A stretch of DNA of 32,000 nt, taken from an uncultured archaeon (GTDB lineage Archaea; Asgardarchaeota; Thorarchaeia; Thorarchaeales; Thorarchaeaceae). Shown piece after piece: positions 9,026-32,000 of the stretch; position 1 is the first letter of the stretch, and each line of letters opens with the position of its first letter. The notes below the pieces were generated by a model that did no database searches, had not been told where the DNA came from, and saw only the letters and a list, made by a program, of their open reading frames with translations. The position numbers and the translations under genes are program-made. The stretch covers positions 66,000 to 97,999 of the forward strand of contig CAZYLT010000011.1 of NCBI GenBank assembly GCA_964648855.1, given 5' to 3'.

Positions 9026-11947
9026 TTGAAGTACCACAAGTTCACTCTATTTTTTGCAGTATCCTTCCTTCTCATAGGCGTGGCTATAGTTTCACCAACC
9101 TTTGCTGCCAGGCCTCCGAAGGACACAACACCACCATCAGTCACTATCACCAATCCCAGCGATGGGGAAATAGTGTCTGGGATTGTCACAATCACATTTT
9201 CAGCTACTGATGAGAATCCCGTTGTAGGCTATGAGATTCTCATAGATGGACAACTGTATTCTGAGGACCAGACCTATGATTGGGATACAACTATAGAGTC
9301 AGATGGTGACTACTCCATAACATGTAGGGCAAGAGACAACTCAAGGAATTGGGGTGAAGACTCGATCTTGGTCACTGTTGACAATAGCGGTGAAAACATT
9401 GCTCCATCAGTCACCATTACGAACCCCACTGATGGTTCAAGTGTTTCTGGAATAGTAAGCATAACTGTATCCGTAAATGATGAGGAAACACTTACGCCAG
9501 ACATATACATTGATGGAACTCTTGTCGCCTCAGCATCCACCTATGATTGGGACACTACTGGTTATACAGATGGCTCACATGAGATATTCGCAGAGGCAAC
9601 TGATGCAGGTGGACTCACTGGTTCTGATACAAGCACGGTATCGGTGGATAACAGTGGATTGGAGGAACCCGTCTCTGATGCCATCAAAGTGATGACCTAC
9701 AATATCGAGGCATCTGGTGCCAATGAGGATTGGAAGCAGGTAGTAAAGGAGGAAAACGCGGACATTCTCATTCTCGTAGAAACAGGGACATGGGACGACA
9801 ATGGAAATCAAATTCTCAATGACGTAGTGAATGAGTTCAATTCTTACTTCTCAGATGAAACACCATATGTTGGCTACTGTGCTCAGGACATCACCTATTC
9901 AACTAGTGGCGAAGCAATTTTGAGCAGATATCCAGTCTTGGAGTTCAATCAAATCCCAATAGTTCCTCTAGACGATGGATCAGACTATGATGTCACTCAC
10001 GACTTTGTAGAAGCCGTGTTGGATATTGATGGAACAGTCGTTCACGTCTTTGGTTCACACCTGAAGGCAATGTCCGGTTCGGAAAACGAATGGAGACGAG
10101 AACGAGAAACGGAAGGAATAATCAATTACATGGACAATCTTGGCAATATTCCCATTATGTACGTGGGTGACCTCAATTCATTCTCTCCTGATGATACGGG
10201 TGACTTAGCCCCGATGGGCGATTTAGGATATGGCCCCATGACAATGAAGCTCTATTCATCGGACCCCACTTACGGTCAATACTCGTCCGATGTACATACG
10301 TTCACGGATGTCTTCAGAACTCTGAATCCGACGGATCCAGGCTATACATATGGCCATCAAGACACACAATACACCTCGAGAATTGACTTCTTGATTGTCA
10401 ATTCATTCTTCAATGACAAACTCATCAATTCAACCTGTGGTGACACGCTTACTGCAGACACAGGATCTGACCACTACAGTGTTGACCTATTCGTAAACTG
10501 GAATTCAACATCGGAACCGGATACAACTCCGCCCACTCAAGTCACAGGCCTTGGAGCCACTACTGTGAGCATGTCACAAATCGACCTATCTTGGAATGCC
10601 AATACGGAGGACGACCTATCACATTATCGCGTGTACCGAGATGGCGTTCTTGTTGCACAAGTGTACGACACTCAGTACAGCGATACCGGCCTTGAGCCCA
10701 GTACCACTTACGCTTACGAGGTTTCAGCTCGTGATACAAGTCTAAACGAGGGGCCGAAGTCTGACCCTGTCACTGCAACTACAGATGAGGGCGGAAGTGC
10801 TACTCTGGTTGTGCTCAACGAATTCCTACCAGACCCCTATACACTATACTCTGAAGAATGGATTGAGCTTTACAATCCACAGGATTTGGACGCCGACTTA
10901 TCTGGATATATATTGGATGACATCACTGATGGCGGAACCAATCCGTACACAATTCCTGCGGGTACAACAATTCCTGGGAAAGGATTCTTGGTCTTCTATC
11001 AGGGGGTCACTGGAGTAGGCCTGAATAATGCAGGTGATACTGCCAATCTCATTCAACCTGATGGGAGCACCATCCAAGACTCCTACAGCTATACATCATC
11101 CACAAATGACGTCAGCTACGGTCGAGAAACCGATGGTGGGTCAACTTGGACCACTTTCACATCGCCTACGCCAGGAGCCTCAAATGGAGGGACATCCGGA
11201 AGTGGTGATGTCGTAGTGCTCAATGAGTTTCTACCTGACCCATATTCGCTATATAGCGAAGAATGGATTGAACTCTATAATCCAACGGATAGTGAAGTTG
11301 ACATCTCAGGTTACGTATTAGACGACATCACATCGGGTGGGACTAGTGCCTATGTCATTCCAGATGGAACTGCGATACCAGCATACGGGTTCATAGTATT
11401 CTATCAGGGGACAACTGGAATTGCATTGAATAACGATGGTGACACAGCGAACTTCCTCAAGCCGGATGGAACAACCGTCCTTGACTCCTATAGCTATTCG
11501 TCATCAACTGATGATGTGAGCTATGGTCGCGAAACTGATGGTGGGTCAACTTGGACAACATTCACATCACCTACGCCTGGCGAGAGTAATACCGGACAGA
11601 GTTCAAACACGAAGGTCCATGTGTCAAGTATCTCTTTCTCCACACGGTATTCCTCTAATGGACGAACCGAATACCTCGATATCACCGTAACTGTGGTTGA
11701 TGAATCTGGTTCTCCTGCTGAAGGGGTCACGGTTGACGGAACTCTGCTGTTGCCAGATGGCTCAAGTGAGAGCTATAGTGGTGTGTCTGACCTCAACGGT
11801 GAGGTCACCTTCACCTACTATTTCAGACCGAACCAATTCCTTCGCTCAGGAGATTATACATTCACTGTTGACAACCTCTCCGGAACCGGCTTTGAGTACG
11901 ATTCAGCTGCTAATCTAGAAACTTCTGATATTTGGACAAAACAATAA
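9026..11947 (+). CDS. Secreted multidomain EEP (endonuclease/exonuclease/phosphatase) protein: signal peptide, 2 Ig-like, EEP, FN3, 2 lamin-tail domains, Ig-like
   Basis: N-terminal signal peptide; two PSVTITNPxDG Ig repeats; EEP motifs TYNIE, ILVET, GSHLK, GDLNS, RIDF, GSDH; FN3 DTTPPTQVTGL...YAYEVSARD; two VLNEFLPDP...EWIELYNP...LNNxGD...SYGR...PTPGxSN copies. TTG start 8 nt after GGAGG. Confidence 0.88.
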   Translation: MKYHKFTLFFAVSFLLIGVAIVSPTFAARPPKDTTPPSVTITNPSDGEIVSGIVTITFSATDENPVVGYEILIDGQLYSEDQTYDWDTTIESDGDYSITCRARDNSRNWGEDSILVTVDNSGENIAPSVTITNPTDGSSVSGIVSITVSVNDEETLTPDIYIDGTLVASASTYDWDTTGYTDGSHEIFAEATDAGGLTGSDTSTVSVDNSGLEEPVSDAIKVMTYNIEASGANEDWKQVVKEENADILILVETGTWDDNGNQILNDVVNEFNSYFSDETPYVGYCAQDITYSTSGEAILSRYPVLEFNQIPIVPLDDGSDYDVTHDFVEAVLDIDGTVVHVFGSHLKAMSGSENEWRRERETEGIINYMDNLGNIPIMYVGDLNSFSPDDTGDLAPMGDLGYGPMTMKLYSSDPTYGQYSSDVHTFTDVFRTLNPTDPGYTYGHQDTQYTSRIDFLIVNSFFNDKLINSTCGDTLTADTGSDHYSVDLFVNWNSTSEPDTTPPTQVTGLGATTVSMSQIDLSWNANTEDDLSHYRVYRDGVLVAQVYDTQYSDTGLEPSTTYAYEVSARDTSLNEGPKSDPVTATTDEGGSATLVVLNEFLPDPYTLYSEEWIELYNPQDLDADLSGYILDDITDGGTNPYTIPAGTTIPGKGFLVFYQGVTGVGLNNAGDTANLIQPDGSTIQDSYSYTSSTNDVSYGRETDGGSTWTTFTSPTPGASNGGTSGSGDVVVLNEFLPDPYSLYSEEWIELYNPTDSEVDISGYVLDDITSGGTSAYVIPDGTAIPAYGFIVFYQGTTGIALNNDGDTANFLKPDGTTVLDSYSYSSSTDDVSYGRETDGGSTWTTFTSPTPGESNTGQSSNTKVHVSSISFSTRYSSNGRTEYLDITVTVVDESGSPAEGVTVDGTLLLPDGSSESYSGVSDLNGEVTFTYYFRPNQFLRSGDYTFTVDNLSGTGFEYDSAANLETSDIWTKQ
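9134..9660 (+). repeat. Two tandem Ig-like domain repeats, 270-nt period
   Basis: CCATCAGTCAC at 9134 and 9404; ACCTATGATTGGGA recurs in both copies. Confidence 0.75.
10811..11590 (+). repeat. Two tandem lamin-tail-domain repeats, 405-nt period
   Basis: Copies at 10811-11185 and 11216-11590; GATGGTGGGTCAACTTGGAC is identical in both. Confidence 0.9.
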
Positions 11948-17958: not shown

Positions 17959-18102
17959 GTGAAACCCTGAAGCCAACATAGTTGCATCAAATCTTGTGCT
18001 ACAACAATCGCCCTTGAGGTCAATCTCTTGGTCAGTTATGCATATTAGCATGAACCGATGGGTTTCTATTAAGCAACGTATGAATATGAATTGGTGGATA
18101 TT

Positions 18103-18429
18103 ATGACTATGGTTTCGTATAAGCTGTATTTGGAAGATTCCGGCGATGGATATGGGATGAAATTTGCTCTTGAAACTGGATACAACAAGCAACTAGTGAA
18201 GTCTATCAAGAGAATGGATTGGAAGCTTTCTCATAGGGGATGGGACCAATACAGTAAGGTATGGAGATTTGACATCAACGACTATGTGGTTGAGGAGCTG
18301 CGAATATTGGGCGTCGATGTCCCGGACCTTGAAAAGTGCAAGGCAGCTGAAAAAGCTCTGACTAGCGCTGAAAGTGACTTCTCTGACGATACATTCCCCA
18401 TAGAAGGCGAACTTGAGGTTTTCGAGTAG
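18103..18429 (+). CDS. Small protein with a HARP-like motif and acidic tail
   Basis: YNKQLVKSIKRM...RGWDQYSKVWRF; TATA-like CTATTAAG about 30 nt upstream and a GGTGG ribosome-binding site. Confidence 0.7.
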   Translation: MTMVSYKLYLEDSGDGYGMKFALETGYNKQLVKSIKRMDWKLSHRGWDQYSKVWRFDINDYVVEELRILGVDVPDLEKCKAAEKALTSAESDFSDDTFPIEGELEVFE

Positions 18430-18596: not shown

Positions 18597-18650
18597 TATA
18601 AATCTAAACTATAATAGTTAACAAATATCTTTATTAACTATAATGGTTTA
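18597..18650 (+). promoter_or_regulatory. TATA box plus double palindromic operator upstream of DUF3307-SatD
   Basis: TATAAA at 18597-18602; AACTAT-A-ATAGTT at 18607-18619; AACTAT-A-ATGGTT at 18636-18648. Confidence 0.65.
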
Positions 18651-18695
18651 CTATTTAGGTGAAGAACAGGTATTGATGCTTCTGGATGTGGTGAA

Positions 18696-19187
18696 ATGAA
18701 AGATTCACAAAGACTTCTTGGTATATTGATGACTCTCTTCAGCATTCTCTTCATAGTTCTACTAAAGGTGTATCCCCTTGAGTTACTGCTTGCTCCGTTC
18801 TACGTTATTCTCTTCAATTTTTTTCTGACTCTCTTTCTTCCTGGACTGATTATTGACTTGGTCTTTTCCTGGCTAGGAAGGGGCGCCAACAACAATATCT
18901 CTGAGATGTGTGGTGGTCTGCGATATGGAGGGTACCTCATCGGATACACAGAACGGGGTCTGATATACCTGGCATTTATGATAGCCTATTTTGAAGATAC
19001 GATATCCTTCGTGTCTGTACTGAGTTTTCTCTCAGTTATTGTCGCCGGGAAGGCAATCTTCAGGTATTCAAGTCGAGGAACTGATGATAGAGCCTGCGCA
19101 GATTGGTATATTCTTGGCACATTGATGAGTATCACCATGGCTCTAGCATTAACATGGTTTGGTTTCAGATTTCTACTGGCAGGATGA
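18696..19187 (+). CDS. DUF3307/SatE-like multi-pass membrane protein
   Basis: GYLIGYTERGLI...IVAGKAIFRY...DWYILGTLMS matches the conserved C-terminal half of DUF3307-type proteins; adjacent to satD; GGTGA ribosome-binding site. Confidence 0.72.
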   Translation: MKDSQRLLGILMTLFSILFIVLLKVYPLELLLAPFYVILFNFFLTLFLPGLIIDLVFSWLGRGANNNISEMCGGLRYGGYLIGYTERGLIYLAFMIAYFEDTISFVSVLSFLSVIVAGKAIFRYSSRGTDDRACADWYILGTLMSITMALALTWFGFRFLLAG

Positions 19188-19194
19188 ATCTGCA

Positions 19195-19833
19195 ATGATT
19201 GCGACCATATTCGACATTGTTGCTTCGAAGGATTTAGGTCGCGAGAAACGGGCAGCAATGGACAAAAACCTTCGAGATATTTTGAATCAGGTCAATGACC
19301 GATTCGGTGATTATTGTGTAGCCCGACCAGCTCTAACACAGGGAGATAGCATTGAGTTGCTTGTGGACAGCTGGCAGCCTATAGTATTCCTCGCTCACAA
19401 GCTTTTGATGAAAGGAATCGAGTTTCGTGTCGGCTTAGGAACCGGTAAAATCACCCTCAAGAAGGACATTGCTGATGAATGCGATGGGCCTGCTTTTTGG
19501 AATGCCAGAGATGCACTTGATGAGGTCAAACAAATGAAATATATGTCCCGAGTCGCCGGGTTCAAGATTGATGACAAGTCCTCAAAAAATGAGGAAATGG
19601 ATGTAATTAATTCAGTTCTATTTCTCACGACACTGCTCAGTCAAACGACCACTCAACTTGAGCACTGCTACTACTATCTCTGGGAGGATAAGGGGCTCTC
19701 CGAGATCGCCGCCGTTACAGAGACCTCTACAGCTAATGTGAGCAAGTCTTTGAGCAAGACGCCGTGTTATCTTCTGGATAGGGTAATGAAGTATCTCAGT
19801 AATCTGCCCAATAATATTTCCAAAACAGCGTGA
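19195..19833 (+). CDS. satD: SatD-family protein (nucleotide-cyclase-like palm domain plus C-terminal HTH)
   Basis: IFDIVASK, LTQGDSIE, FRVGLGTG, DGPAFWNARDALD; HTH GLSEIAAVTETSTANVSKSLSK. Confidence 0.82.
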   Translation: MIATIFDIVASKDLGREKRAAMDKNLRDILNQVNDRFGDYCVARPALTQGDSIELLVDSWQPIVFLAHKLLMKGIEFRVGLGTGKITLKKDIADECDGPAFWNARDALDEVKQMKYMSRVAGFKIDDKSSKNEEMDVINSVLFLTTLLSQTTTQLEHCYYYLWEDKGLSEIAAVTETSTANVSKSLSKTPCYLLDRVMKYLSNLPNNISKTA

Positions 19834-27011: not shown

Positions 27012-30000
27012 CTCTCAATCCCCATTCTTTGGGATTAGCTTCTGTGACCATGGGGGAGCTTGTGAAGCCAGCCGTAGAATATGTTGTCTTTCAATCCCCA
27101 TTCTTTGGGATTAGCTTCTGTGACACGCGGGTATCCATCTTCATTGTGGTCCAGTCCACTTCCTTTCAATCCCCATTCTTTGGGATTAGCTTCTGTGACT
27201 CCAATCGTCGAGATACTCTCCAAACGCCTGCCCCAATACTTTCAATCCCCATTCTTTGGGATTAGCTTCTGTGACGGTCCTCAATCTTGGCCCCAACCTT
27301 AACGCTATTGAGTATCTTTCAATCCCCATTCTTTGGGATTAGCTTCTGTGACTTATGAGCGAAGAAGATATTTTTAACCGCGTCATGGACACTTTCAATC
27401 CCCATTCTTTGGGATTAGCTTCTGTGACCATACGCTATGAACGTCGCCCACATAGGCTTCGGATCCACTTTCAATCCCCATTCTTTGGGATTAGCTTCTG
27501 TGACGGGGTCCAAGCGATACCCTGAAGTTGCTCTTGAATCACAATCTTTCAATCCCCATTCTTTGGGATTAGCTTCTGTGACTCTACGACGATTACGCCA
27601 GAATGAAAGGGGGCTACGACTCCTTTCAATCCCCATTCTTTGGGATTAGCTTCTGTGACAAGGATAAGGTGGTGGTCGCGACGAAACGGGTCTCGGTCTT
27701 TCAATCCCCATTCTTTGGGATTAGCTTCTGTGACCTTGTGAGCTGAATCCCGCGTCTGCAGTTGCAAGATTAACTTTCAATCCCCATTCTTTGGGATTAG
27801 CTTCTGTGACCTGAAGACGTGGCTACGAGATGAGAGCAATCGACAGATCTTTCAATCCCCATTCTTTGGGATTAGCTTCTGTGACAGAGGCTATGCGAAA
27901 AGTGGGGTTTGGCGACTACTGGACCTTTCAATCCCCATTCTTTGGGATTAGCTTCTGTGACCTTCTTACAACACACTAAATTCCCGTCACTGCACTTCAA
28001 CTTTCAATCCCCATTCTTTGGGATTAGCTTCTGTGACTATCTGTGCCATCAGGGTCCTCGATGACCACCTTCCCTGCCTTTCAATCCCCATTCTTTGGGA
28101 TTAGCTTCTGTGACCAATTTTTGCTCATGGAAGTGTCTTAAGGCATGGATCTTTCAATCCCCATTCTTTGGGATTAGCTTCTGTGACTCAAGGTCAACAA
28201 ACAGTCGGTCTCAAAGATGTCCGAACTTTCAATCCCCATTCTTTGGGATTAGCTTCTGTGACTTGTATATTTCTGATGGAACCAGTGTTACAATGTATGT
28301 CTTTCAATCCCCATTCTTTGGGATTAGCTTCTGTGACAACGGTATTCCGCTCCGTGCGGATGACGCTATGGCAGCACTTCGCCAGATCTTTCAATCCCCA
28401 TTCTTTGGGATTAGCTTCTGTGACCATATTATGGATACTGATTGTGATGGAAGTTGGCAAGATCTTTCAATCCCCATTCTTTGGGATTAGCTTCTGTGAC
28501 AAACGCGGGCGACAGATAGAATTTAGAACGGCGACGATACGCCTTTCAATCCCCATTCTTTGGGATTAGCTTCTGTGACAAAATTGACTTTCCCGACGAC
28601 GGTAACAATATCGACACACTTTCAATCCCCATTCTTTGGGATTAGCTTCTGTGACGATGTGACTGGGAAATATGTTGAGTTGTATGTGCGTGTCAACTTT
28701 CAATCCCCATTCTTTGGGATTAGCTTCTGTGACGACGGAGAAAAGAGACTCAGAGCATGGATTCACGCCAACTTTCAATCCCCATTCTTTGGGATTAGCT
28801 TCTGTGACTCTGCGACTCGTGAAATCATGCTCTGGCCATATCGCCCTTTCAATCCCCATTCTTTGGGATTAGCTTCTGTGACTTTTGTTGAGTTTAGTAT
28901 GTTTTGGTTTCTTACATTCCTTTCAATCCCCATTCTTTGGGATTAGCTTCTGTGACCGCGGTCGTTTTCTTGTTGTGGTCAATTGCCCTATCTTTCAATC
29001 CCCATTCTTTGGGATTAGCTTCTGTGACTTAGTGTGGCAAGAGCGCCATCTGTCGTTCTCTCAGCCTCTTTCAATCCCCATTCTTTGGGATTAGCTTCTG
29101 TGACTAGTACAGAAGCACGTGCTGATGATACCGAGCCAATCATCTTTCAATCCCCATTCTTTGGGATTAGCTTCTGTGACATTATAGCCGTTCCATTGCT
29201 TACCGGCGGTGCAATGACACTTTCAATCCCCATTCTTTGGGATTAGCTTCTGTGACCCCAATCTTCTCCAGCATCATCATAATCTGCTGGCATTGCTTTC
29301 AATCCCCATTCTTTGGGATTAGCTTCTGTGACCCAATTACACCATGGAAAACACAGGTTGGGAAACTGAGGACTTTCAATCCCCATTCTTTGGGATTAGC
29401 TTCTGTGACAAGCACACACCCGGACCGCGAACCACCAAGACGGGAATGCTTTCAATCCCCATTCTTTGGGATTAGCTTCTGTGACACTCGAAGATTGAAC
29501 GGACTGTCCATGTATACCTGACCTTTCAATCCCCATTCTTTGGGATTAGCTTCTGTGACTACGGAGGAATAGAACAACATGATACACACAAGACACTCTT
29601 TCAATCCCCATTCTTTGGGATTAGCTTCTGTGACTACAGATGGATTGGCTGGGGTTAATGTCTATATACAAAACTTTCAATCCCCATTCTTTGGGATTAG
29701 CTTCTGTGACTCAAAACATGTGCGGAACAGATTGCGACAGAACGCAACTTTCAATCCCCATTCTTTGGGATTAGCTTCTGTGACCTGATATTGCTGCAGC
29801 AGCAAACTTAGAGGTGGCACCACTTTCAATCCCCATTCTTTGGGATTAGCTTCTGTGACGAGCCAGGAGTGGCAACTCATCACCGCTGACAGTTTTCCTT
29901 TCAATCCCCATTCTTTGGGATTAGCTTCTGTGACCTGGCGGGATTTGCTCACAAAAGCGACGATGCCTGGTGCGCTACGCGTGCTTTCAATCCCCATTCT

Positions 30001-32000
30001 TTGGGATTAGCTTCTGTGACTCAAAACATGTGCGGAACAGATTGCGACAGAACGCAACTTTCAATCCCCATTCTTTGGGATTAGCTTCTGTGACGCAATA
30101 TCCGGCGCGCCGCTTGAAAATTCTGCAACGATTCTTTCAATCCCCATTCTTTGGGATTAGCTTCTGTGACTGCGATAATTGGCGCCGTGGCATTTCGCGA
30201 CAGATGATCTTTCAATCCCCATTCTTTGGGATTAGCTTCTGTGACCTCTCTTGGACGATGAATGTTGCTCGTCCGGCAACACCCTTTCAATCCCCATTCT
30301 TTGGGATTAGCTTCTGTGACTCCATTTTTGTCGGGAATAGTTGAAGGACTCAATGCTCTTTCAATCCCCATTCTTTGGGATTAGCTTCTGTGACCAAGTC
30401 ATATTTGCGCCGTGGGAAGTATCAGTATATGACTTTCAATCCCCATTCTTTGGGATTAGCTTCTGTGACCCTCTATAGTCAAGCGGTTGATATCCTGACG
30501 AATATCTTTCAATCCCCATTCTTTGGGATTAGCTTCTGTGACTCAGGACCGAACTAGATGAATATGCTGAGCAGATCCCCTTTCAATCCCCATTCTTTGG
30601 GATTAGCTTCTGTGACGAAGAATTTATCATGGATAAATTACGTAAGAGATACTTTCAATCCCCATTCTTTGGGATTAGCTTCTGTGACTTGGTAGGATGG
30701 ATTAAGCGGTTGAAGGGAGTTATAGTCTTTCAATCCCCATTCTTTGGGATTAGCTTCTGTGACGACGTTACCATCAAGACCACGGCGGACACATACTTCA
30801 ACTTTCAATCCCCATTCTTTGGGATTAGCTTCTGTGACCTCCCGATAAAAAATGAGAACGAAACTTGCTTGGCACTCTTTCAATCCCCATTCTTTGGGAT
30901 TAGCTTCTGTGACCTCAATAGCATTGTAGGATTTTCCTGTGCTTGACCCAGCCCTTTCAATCCCCATTCTTTGGGATTAGCTTCTGTGACTGCGCATGGA
31001 AAACAAGAAGAACTACTGTCGTCTGACATCTTTCAATCCCCATTCTTTGGGATTAGCTTCTGTGACAAATAGAGGTTTGACAATTACAGATGATTTCCTG
31101 ATATGCTTTCAATCCCCATTCTTTGGGATTAGCTTCTGTGACCATGTTAACAGACAAAGAACTAGATATTTTTCATTGGGCCTTTCAATCCCCATTCTTT
31201 GGGATTAGCTTCTGTGACTCCTCATAGAGGCCTCTGAGGATGGTTCTACGTGGTCAACTTTCAATCCCCATTCTTTGGGATTAGCTTCTGTGACAATAGA
31301 CGTGCAAGAGCACGATGTAGATCTATCTGTGGTCTTTCAATCCCCATTCTTTGGGATTAGCTTCTGTGACATCCCAGTAGAAGTCTGTATAGGTGAGACG
31401 TTGCACGTATCTTTCAATCCCCATTCTTTGGGATTAGCTTCTGTGACTTCTTGGCCATCATCTCTTTCACATCAAAGCCAAACATCTTTCAATCCCCATT
31501 CTTTGGGATTAGCTTCTGTGACAGTAATTCGCATATACACGAGAGCAGCGATGAAGGCCAGTACAACTTTCAATCCCCATTCTTTGGGATTAGCTTCTGT
31601 GACTATTCTAGAAATTCATGATTTATTTGGTGATCTTTATTCTTTCAATCCCCATTCTTTGGGATTAGCTTCTGTGACTCAGCATCAAAAACAAGTGCAC
31701 TATCTTCTACATATACTTTCAATCCCCATTCTTTGGGATTAGCTTCTGTGACATAGAAAAATTGAGAGGGAGAGTAGAAAAAGGAGTACATTTACTTTCA
31801 ATCCCCATTCTTTGGGATTAGCTTCTGTGACAATGTTGATCTTTTTCCTTTTCATTGTGACACCCCTTAATCTTTCAATCCCCATTCTTTGGGATTAGCT
31901 TCTGTGACTGAGTTTCAATGGCTTTGTTTCCATTTGCATATTAGCCTTTCAATCCCCATTCTTTGGGATTAGCTTCTGTGACAGGGCGCCTTTTTGCTTC
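27012..32000 (-). CRISPR. CRISPR array with a 37-bp repeat; 66 repeats and 65 full spacers (35-50 nt, mostly 37-40) in the window, continuing past the window end
   Basis: Repeat on + is CTTTCAATCCCCATTCTTTGGGATTAGCTTCTGTGAC. On the minus strand it ends ATTGAAAG, the typical Cas6 8-nt handle. The leftmost copy (27012-27048) carries a T>C change, consistent with the trailer end, so the leader should lie beyond 32000. Counts were made by eye. Confidence 0.99.

Follow-up and report, generated by a model that had tools for sequence, protein, structure and literature searches.

The stretch analyzed here, which we call the window, comprises 32,000 nucleotides of contig CAZYLT010000011.1 (positions 66,000 to 97,999, forward strand) from an uncultured archaeon of the family Thorarchaeaceae (assembly GCA_964648855.1). 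It contains a two-gene cassette, in which a gene for a small polytopic membrane protein is followed after only 7 nt by a gene for SatD, a protein with a cyclase-like palm domain and a helix-turn-helix (HTH) domain (Table 1). The names SatD and SatE, used for the protein pair defined by the Pfam families PF16264 and PF11750, derive from the satD-satE genes in the sat locus of Streptococcus mutans. An earlier reading of this DNA without database searches (the sequence-only reading) had described the two open reading frames (ORFs) as a tightly linked unit with the membrane gene in front, and we find both ORFs and their order as described. A search for repeats and palindromes added a third component: two 18-bp operator-like sites, exactly 29 bp apart, upstream of the membrane gene. 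We also considered a longer version of SatD that starts at TTG 19159 and overlaps the membrane gene, and rejected it because homologous proteins begin with the sequence MIAxIxDI at the ATG codon.

Table 1. Features of the SatD cassette and of the downstream repeat array (positions in the window)
Feature	Position	Strand	Description
Distal operator-like site	18605-18622	+	TAAACTATAATAGTTAAC; two GT(T/A)(A/T)AC-type half-sites with 7 nt between them; 18.1 bits in the position weight matrix (PWM)
Proximal operator-like site	18634-18651	+	TTAACTATAATGGTTTAC; abuts the TATA-like box at the position of a B recognition element (BRE); PWM 20.3 bits
TATA-like element (putative promoter)	18652-18657	+	TATTTA, read from the sequence; ~39 nt before the start codon
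Membrane partner ORF	18696-19187	+	163 aa; 5 predicted transmembrane (TM) helices, N-terminus inside; motifs CGGLxxGGYLIGYxER, KAIFRYS, RACADWYILGT
SatD ORF	19195-19833	+	212 aa; starts with ATG
SatD N-terminal palm/class III cyclase-like domain	19195-19638	+	residues 1 to ~148; PF16264 and fold matches
SatD C-terminal helical HTH (sigma-70 region 4/YlxM-like) and stop codon	19639-19833	+	helices 152-203 in the structure model
CRISPR (clustered regularly interspaced short palindromic repeats) array	27012-31982	+	66 near-identical repeats of 37 nt, CTTTCAATCCCCATTCTTTGGGATTAGCTTCTGTGAC; begins 243 nt downstream of hisI and extends as far as the end of the contig

Close homologues of both proteins are numerous (45-87% identity), come nearly all from Thorarchaeota and are encoded on the same contigs. 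The two genes are adjacent in 21 of 21 archaeal loci. The gap between them, mostly 7 nt, measures 4-9 nt in 20 of these loci and turns into a 4-nt overlap in the remaining one. The pairing extends to bacteria, where a SatD-like ORF lies directly upstream and on the same strand of 79 out of 80 genes for the long form of SatE. These 80 genomes were reached through this long form; a non-iterated Thorarchaeal hidden Markov model alone found the SatD-like ORF in 35 of the 80. Relative to this canonical arrangement, the Thorarchaeal gene order is inverted. Other Asgard families encode SatD first and then a membrane partner that is likewise short (130-138 aa), and on the haloarchaeal megaplasmid pHOS300 (Halorientalis sp. 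IM1011) SatD precedes a full DUF3307 protein in the canonical order.

What is this membrane partner? The protein matches no family in Pfam, NCBIfam or PADLOC (Pfam and PADLOC at E ≤ 1). A profile built from 31 Thorarchaeal membrane proteins found 533 representatives among 1.84 billion proteins. The longer relatives (~250 aa) carry the Pfam domain DUF3307 over their first ~120 residues in 31 of 40 cases (PF11750 at residues 9-122). To these DUF3307 proteins the Thorarchaeal partner aligns only over the last ~120 aa (residues ~140-260; hhalign 99.6%, E 4e-24), with the common motifs GLxxGGxxIGxxER, AAKxIFR(F/Y) and RxxA(E/D)(Y/W)xIxGT. PF11750 itself was found in none of the 31 Thorarchaeal members even at E ≤ 10, and the His/Asp motifs of this N-terminal domain (H..DF..Q, H..ID..K and DQ..H) are absent from the Thorarchaeal partner. 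Given the alignment to the C-terminal half and the lack of a DUF3307 match, sequence comparison identifies the partner as a stand-alone C-terminal 5-TM module of SatE-type proteins. The term DUF3307-like in the sequence-only reading, which had itself noted that the usual N-terminal part is missing, stands with respect to homology, namely to the C-terminal half; the Pfam domain has no match at all. Coverage of the family by Pfam is itself incomplete, as PF11750 describes only the N-terminal ~120 aa of SatE proteins and leaves the conserved 5-TM module without a model. The possibility that the gene is split, with the DUF3307 domain encoded elsewhere, was rejected for this genome because PF11750 has no match in it at E ≤ 0.1 (3.1 Mb, 94.6% complete).

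Earlier, four to five TM helices with charged residues in or near them had been noted. Five helices are now predicted, and the charged residues prove to be conserved (E86-R87 and K119..F122-R123-Y124), with E86, K119, G141, T142 and S145 invariant throughout the family. The structure model (predicted local distance difference test, pLDDT, 88.5) consists of five long helices. There are nine Lys/Arg residues on the N-terminal side of the membrane vs two on the other side; by the positive-inside rule, the N-terminus, the Gly-rich loop, E86-R87, K119, R123, R132 and D136 are predicted to face the cytoplasm. A Foldseek search with the model returned nothing at E ≤ 0.001. In a VIA-align comparison with 48,161 chains, the best matches were five-helix bundles of the resistance-nodulation-division (RND)/sterol-sensing type (MmpL5, NCR1, Patched; Z 8.6, root-mean-square deviation (rmsd) 5.2 Å). 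Since this Z value lies within the background for helical bundles, we rejected the RND/sterol-sensing fold and assigned none.

SatD matches PF16264 over residues 2-143 (E 2.2e-16, 60.6 bits at a cutoff of 29). The same model is present in all of the 100+ Thorarchaeal SatD homologues; in a broad SatD alignment of 59 sequences it recognizes only 32, so that this Pfam model, too, covers the family incompletely. An AlphaFold2 model computed from 41 homologues (pLDDT 92, predicted TM-score 0.89) was compared with known structures. The top Foldseek matches in the PDB are all class III adenylyl or guanylyl cyclases (Rv1900c, Ma1120, OaPAC and CyaC; probability 1.0, E ~3e-4), and the Pycsar cyclic UMP synthase 7r65 follows lower in the list. 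VIA-align with residues 1 to ~145 ranks GTP cyclohydrolase III first (MJ0145, 2qv6; Z 12.0, rmsd 2.9 Å, 114 residues), and finds class III cyclases (Z 9.3-10.3 over 117-133 residues), GGDEF domains (Z 9.2-10.3) and the palm of Cmr2 (Z 9-10). Bacterial SatDs contain a motif, FRGDSFQ, that resembles the RxGGDEF of diguanylate cyclases. GTP cyclohydrolase III and GGDEF proteins have a chemistry and an architecture of their own; these matches indicate a palm fold that binds nucleoside triphosphates (NTPs) and metal, and not a particular reaction.

The relation to cyclases is also visible at the level of sequence. A broad profile of Thorarchaeal, other archaeal and bacterial SatDs matches the Ma1120 cyclase from Mycobacterium avium (4wp8/4wp9) with E 1.5e-4; a profile restricted to Thorarchaeota found no cyclase among the PDB sequences. 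The broad alignment pairs TGDIVxS with FTDIEEST, RGDS with QGDG, and RxxIGxG with RIGIHMG. D7 and D51 therefore fall where cyclases have their two metal-binding aspartates, the acidic pair that the sequence-only reading had picked out. The motifs DIVAS (D7, S11) and LTQGDS (G50, D51) hardly vary, either within Thorarchaeota or among 77 homologues from bacteria. D7, S11, G50, D51, R78, G84 and G98 are conserved to 83-100% among 41 Thorarchaeal and the 77 bacterial SatDs. Across bacteria and archaea, D7 and D51 reach 97-100%. The set D7, S11, G50 and D51 reaches 96-100% at an overall identity of 15-25%, which argues for a metal/NTP site that has been maintained.

SatD nevertheless differs from canonical class III cyclases. 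In common with Ma1120 and Rv1900c from M. tuberculosis (1ybt) it has the fold (VIA-align Z 9.4-10.3) and, as aligned to Ma1120, the elements TDIxxS, GD and RxGxxxG. Unlike these enzymes, it has no match to Guanylate_cyc (PF00211) at E ≤ 1, its domain is ~25% shorter and fused to an HTH, and it is not known to have cyclase activity. The Asn and Arg of a W-N103-A-R105 motif on the next helix are invariant in Thorarchaeota only. Their spacing is N+2, whereas that of class III cyclases is N+4, and bacterial SatDs have Ser-Gly in these columns and conserve R49 and R71 instead. Neither this Asn/Arg pair nor the substrate-specifying residues are demonstrably equivalent to those of the cyclases, and an hhalign comparison of the Thorarchaeal alignment with a single Asgard class III cyclase (8.6%) is too weak to map the residues of helix alpha4. 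Canonical class III cyclases are rare in this group: a search of 151 Asgard genomes for PF00211 found it in just one, which is not the genome that carries our SatD. This makes SatD the only cyclase-fold protein identified here, in a search that covered neither GGDEF nor Cas10 palm domains.

The C-terminal ~60 residues of SatD are helical. The broad profile matches the YlxM structure 1s7o in this region (E 1.7e-4); the C-terminus also matches UPF0122/YlxM (E 0.024), sigma-70 region 4 (as Sigma70_r4 in relatives) and other HTH proteins. SatD is thus a palm domain of the class III cyclase/GGDEF type with both metal-binding aspartates, joined to a sigma-4-like HTH. All three elements, fold, aspartates and HTH, had been anticipated from the letters alone. 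In Thorarchaeota, both partners contain invariant or near-invariant cysteines (C41, C96, C158 and C191 in SatD; C72 and C134 in the membrane protein). Bacterial homologues have Val, Ser, Trp or Glu in the columns comparable to C41, C96 and C191 of SatD and to C134 of the partner (RACADW vs RxEAEY). In this lineage, the cysteines may thus connect the two proteins through a specific redox or metal link.

We then turn to the sites upstream of the operon. With a weight matrix derived from Thorarchaeal upstream sequence, we detect 39 sites in 18 Thorarchaeal loci, compared to 0.42 in shuffled sequences. Successive sites are separated by 29 bp in 16 cases and by 58 bp in four, and their distance to the start codon is constant. 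The proximal site of related loci is followed by TTATAA or TTATTA at the same place. The entire 3.1-Mb genome contains 14 sites of at least 14 bits, and the pair in front of the membrane gene is the sole cluster. Bacteria show the same periodicity: direct repeats upstream of satD in 76 loci peak at lags of 28/29 bp (25 loci), with harmonics at 56/58, where shuffled sequences predict ~0.2 per lag and ~0.4 over lags 28 and 29 combined. We therefore consider the phased operator array to be family-wide. It stays at the front of the operon even where the gene order is inverted. By sequence conservation, this array, which is absent from the sequence-only reading, is part of the conserved core of the cassette together with the 5-TM module.

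To see how the cassette is distributed, we surveyed 301 Asgard genomes, 76 of which belong to the family of the genome at hand. Both SatD and the membrane gene are present in an identical set of 27 of these 76, about a third, and both are missing from many genomes that are more than 95% complete. Even among such genomes of one genus, presence is patchy (7 of 25 and 6 of 14). It is single-copy. This patchiness bears out the accessory character that had been suggested. In two related genomes the membrane gene is interrupted by in-frame stops: G266 has several (C12:6476-6939) next to an intact SatD, and in G170 (C434:3934-4410) SatD is truncated. This pattern suggests occasional decay of the cassette. 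Outside archaea, the family is very widespread in the chromosomes of many bacterial phyla (>590 species hits). Phage records contain no relative of SatD, and megaplasmids contribute two haloarchaeal records only.

Within the window, the cassette is flanked by genes for a PadR regulator and a MacB-type ABC transporter, by small ORFs and by the his operon (hisGDCBHAFI), with major facilitator superfamily (MFS) and amino-acid transporters and peptidases further off. Other Thorarchaeal copies adjoin genes for hydrogenase, RNase HII, Elp3 or LigT. The 110 neighboring ORFs of 19 Asgard loci yielded 110 different Pfam families, among which transporters and beta-helix proteins recur. No defense or mobile family recurs beside these 19 loci, where PADLOC matches of neighbors are scattered and generic, or in three locus contexts examined in detail. 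Neither cassette protein matches PADLOC at E ≤ 1. A defense role, as proposed from the letters, finds no backing in these results or in the absence of phage copies; the proposed enrichment of homologues in defense islands was looked for in the 19 Asgard loci and not found there. The same reading had placed the module next to a CRISPR-like repeat. This linkage is rejected because the array begins 7.2 kb downstream, beyond the eight-gene his operon, and we saw no cas genes anywhere in the window.

Two further ORFs deserve mention. One at 18091-18429 (+, 112 aa), just upstream of the cassette, matches Pfam HARP (PF07443) with 25.2 bits at a cutoff of 25, and a genome of the same genus has an ORF of similar size (108 aa), a possible counterpart, at the corresponding place. 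The other (9026-11947, +) encodes a 973-aa protein with lamin-tail (LTD), bacterial Ig and fibronectin III domains, which is probably a surface protein.

How may this cassette work? With middling confidence, we read it as the reduced Asgard form of an autoregulated, self-contained SatD/SatE-type cassette with a toxin-antitoxin-like logic, in which an NTP-binding regulator restrains its membrane partner. Dimers or oligomers of SatD would bind to the array with its 29-bp phase. The proximal site would cover the BRE position beside the TATA box, and SatD bound there would repress both genes. The palm domain would bind an NTP with metal, may also convert it, and would in this way set either the DNA-binding state of SatD or its restraint on the partner. 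The membrane protein would be the output, harmful or strongly active unless restrained by SatD, and its Gly-rich loop on the cytoplasmic side would, with the E/R/K/R cluster, be the likely contact or ligand site. The obligate pairing, the HTH with a phased array at the promoter and the maintained NTP/metal site all fit such a self-contained cassette.

An addiction-like or toxin-antitoxin logic fits the patchy, accessory distribution. For restraint speaks a meta-analysis of transposon sequencing data from S. pyogenes, which reports that satD, alone among the accessory genes, is essential in all strains and data sets examined, even though 29% of S. pyogenes genomes lack it (PMC11323703). A gene that is essential yet accessory bears the signature of one that restrains a co-encoded harm, which is why we favor this reading. 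The genome with several stops in the membrane gene beside an intact SatD is a case in support of the same logic. The resemblance to type II toxin-antitoxin systems with an HTH autorepressor includes two translationally coupled genes, patchy occurrence, an operator-like array close to the promoter, a putative DNA-binding component, and a reported requirement for satD, the DNA-binding gene, that is confined to genomes with the cassette (PMC11323703). In contrast to these systems, the cassette has two far larger proteins, a polytopic membrane protein as the putative toxin and an enzyme-like domain in the regulator.

Several points weigh against this interpretation. Repression, rather than activation, is suggested by the position of the sites, and the toxicity of the partner is presumed. 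The satD of S. pyogenes is a distant bacterial homologue and a putative member of the family. A pure repressor or antitoxin would not need catalytic-type aspartates; that SatD conserves them makes a genuine enzymatic output conceivable. The cassette exceeds classical type II pairs in size, and its Asgard neighborhoods consist of housekeeping genes and not of mobile DNA. Finally, a complex prediction for SatD and its membrane partner gave no verdict (score 0.00), and we count it neither for nor against.

The contender that we take most seriously, although we consider it unlikely, involves no conflict and no toxicity at all. The membrane protein could be a small transporter, or a membrane enzyme or sensor, that serves envelope or stress homeostasis, and SatD its dedicated nucleotide- or metabolite-responsive transcription factor. 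The name sat stands for "secretion and acid tolerance", which is suggestive of such a function. The transporter and housekeeping genes nearby (ABC/FtsX, MFS, CitMHS/ArsB and the his operon), the single copy and the very wide chromosomal spread across bacterial phyla point the same way, and a sole cluster of sites in the genome fits a dedicated local regulator. On the other hand, a housekeeping function would not usually be so patchy among genomes of one genus that are more than 95% complete, an essential yet accessory satD in S. pyogenes (PMC11323703) is hard to square with a benign regulator, and the membrane module resembles no transporter or enzyme fold convincingly (best Z 8.6 at an rmsd above 5 Å).

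It is rather unlikely, in our view, that the cassette is an antiviral system. SatD would then be an active nucleotide cyclase or oligonucleotide synthase, the product of which is sensed by the membrane protein as an effector (a pore or other) that causes abortive infection, and the HTH would merely autoregulate the operon or sense foreign DNA. A gene for a palm-type nucleotide enzyme beside a gene for a small multi-TM protein is indeed an arrangement known from CBASS (cyclic oligonucleotide-based antiphage signaling systems), Pycsar and mCpol systems. Both metal-binding aspartates of the palm are conserved family-wide, the fold matches include the Pycsar synthase 7r65 and the Cmr2 palm, and the invariant cytoplasmic loop GGLxxGGxxIG together with the Lys/Arg cluster of the partner could bind a nucleotide. 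The patchy, accessory distribution would suit such a system as well. However, in contrast to the known systems, neither protein has a PADLOC match and the Asgard loci lack the context of a defense island: the 19 loci have no recurrent defense or mobile neighbors, and copies on mobile elements amount to the two on haloarchaeal megaplasmids, with none in phages. SatD also differs by its HTH and by an operator-like array of its own, and fold searches do not relate the membrane protein to known effectors. Moreover, the transition-state Asn/Arg of class III cyclases is not conserved family-wide, bacteria having Ser-Gly there, and at ~145 aa the SatD domain is short compared to 170-190 aa.

A more specific proposal has SatD as a catalytically active nucleotide synthase of the palm type and the partner as the reader of its product, by way of the Gly-rich cytoplasmic loop; this seems decidedly unlikely to us. 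The combination of the phased array and the essential-accessory phenotype in S. pyogenes is what leads us to place a self-repressed, toxin-antitoxin-like cassette before a pathway from synthase to effector. Very improbable is the idea that the palm is a catalytically dead relic used for dimerization only, in a pair that consists of a plain HTH repressor and a membrane anchor with anti-sigma-like sequestration: the HTH is indeed sigma-70 region 4-like, co-transcription with a membrane partner is also found in sigma/anti-sigma pairs, and SatD does not conserve several of the catalytic positions of class III cyclases, but degenerate cyclase or GGDEF domains normally lose residues of the D7/S11/G50/D51 type, which SatD has kept nearly without exception at very low overall identity.

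The gene pair itself is known, as it is catalogued in Pfam and occurs in hundreds of bacterial and archaeal species. Beyond annotation mentions, we found almost nothing on SatD, SatE, DUF3307, PF16264 and PF11750 in the literature searched, and no biochemical study. The Thorarchaeal cassette resembles the known pair in that SatD scores above the Pfam threshold, homology ties the partner to the 5-TM half at the C-terminus of SatE, the genes are tightly coupled and a 28/29-bp phased array precedes the operon. What is new, as far as sequence comparison can tell, is the Thorarchaeal form: the DUF3307 domain with its His/Asp motifs has been lost, the membrane gene comes first, and lineage-specific residues are invariant (N103/R105 and four cysteines in SatD, C72/C134 in the partner).

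This form amounts to a natural deletion experiment: SatD is always accompanied by the C-terminal 5-TM module, which does not hold for the His/Asp domain. If SatD were an active synthase whose product the partner reads, the cassette would represent a new and very widespread second-messenger-gated membrane system common to bacteria and Asgard archaea, and the 5-TM module, rather than the His/Asp domain of DUF3307, would be its minimal receptor or effector. The array, the aspartates and the membrane partner, together with the S. pyogenes phenotype, offer a possible route to the function of a very widespread family of regulator cassettes with a cyclase fold.

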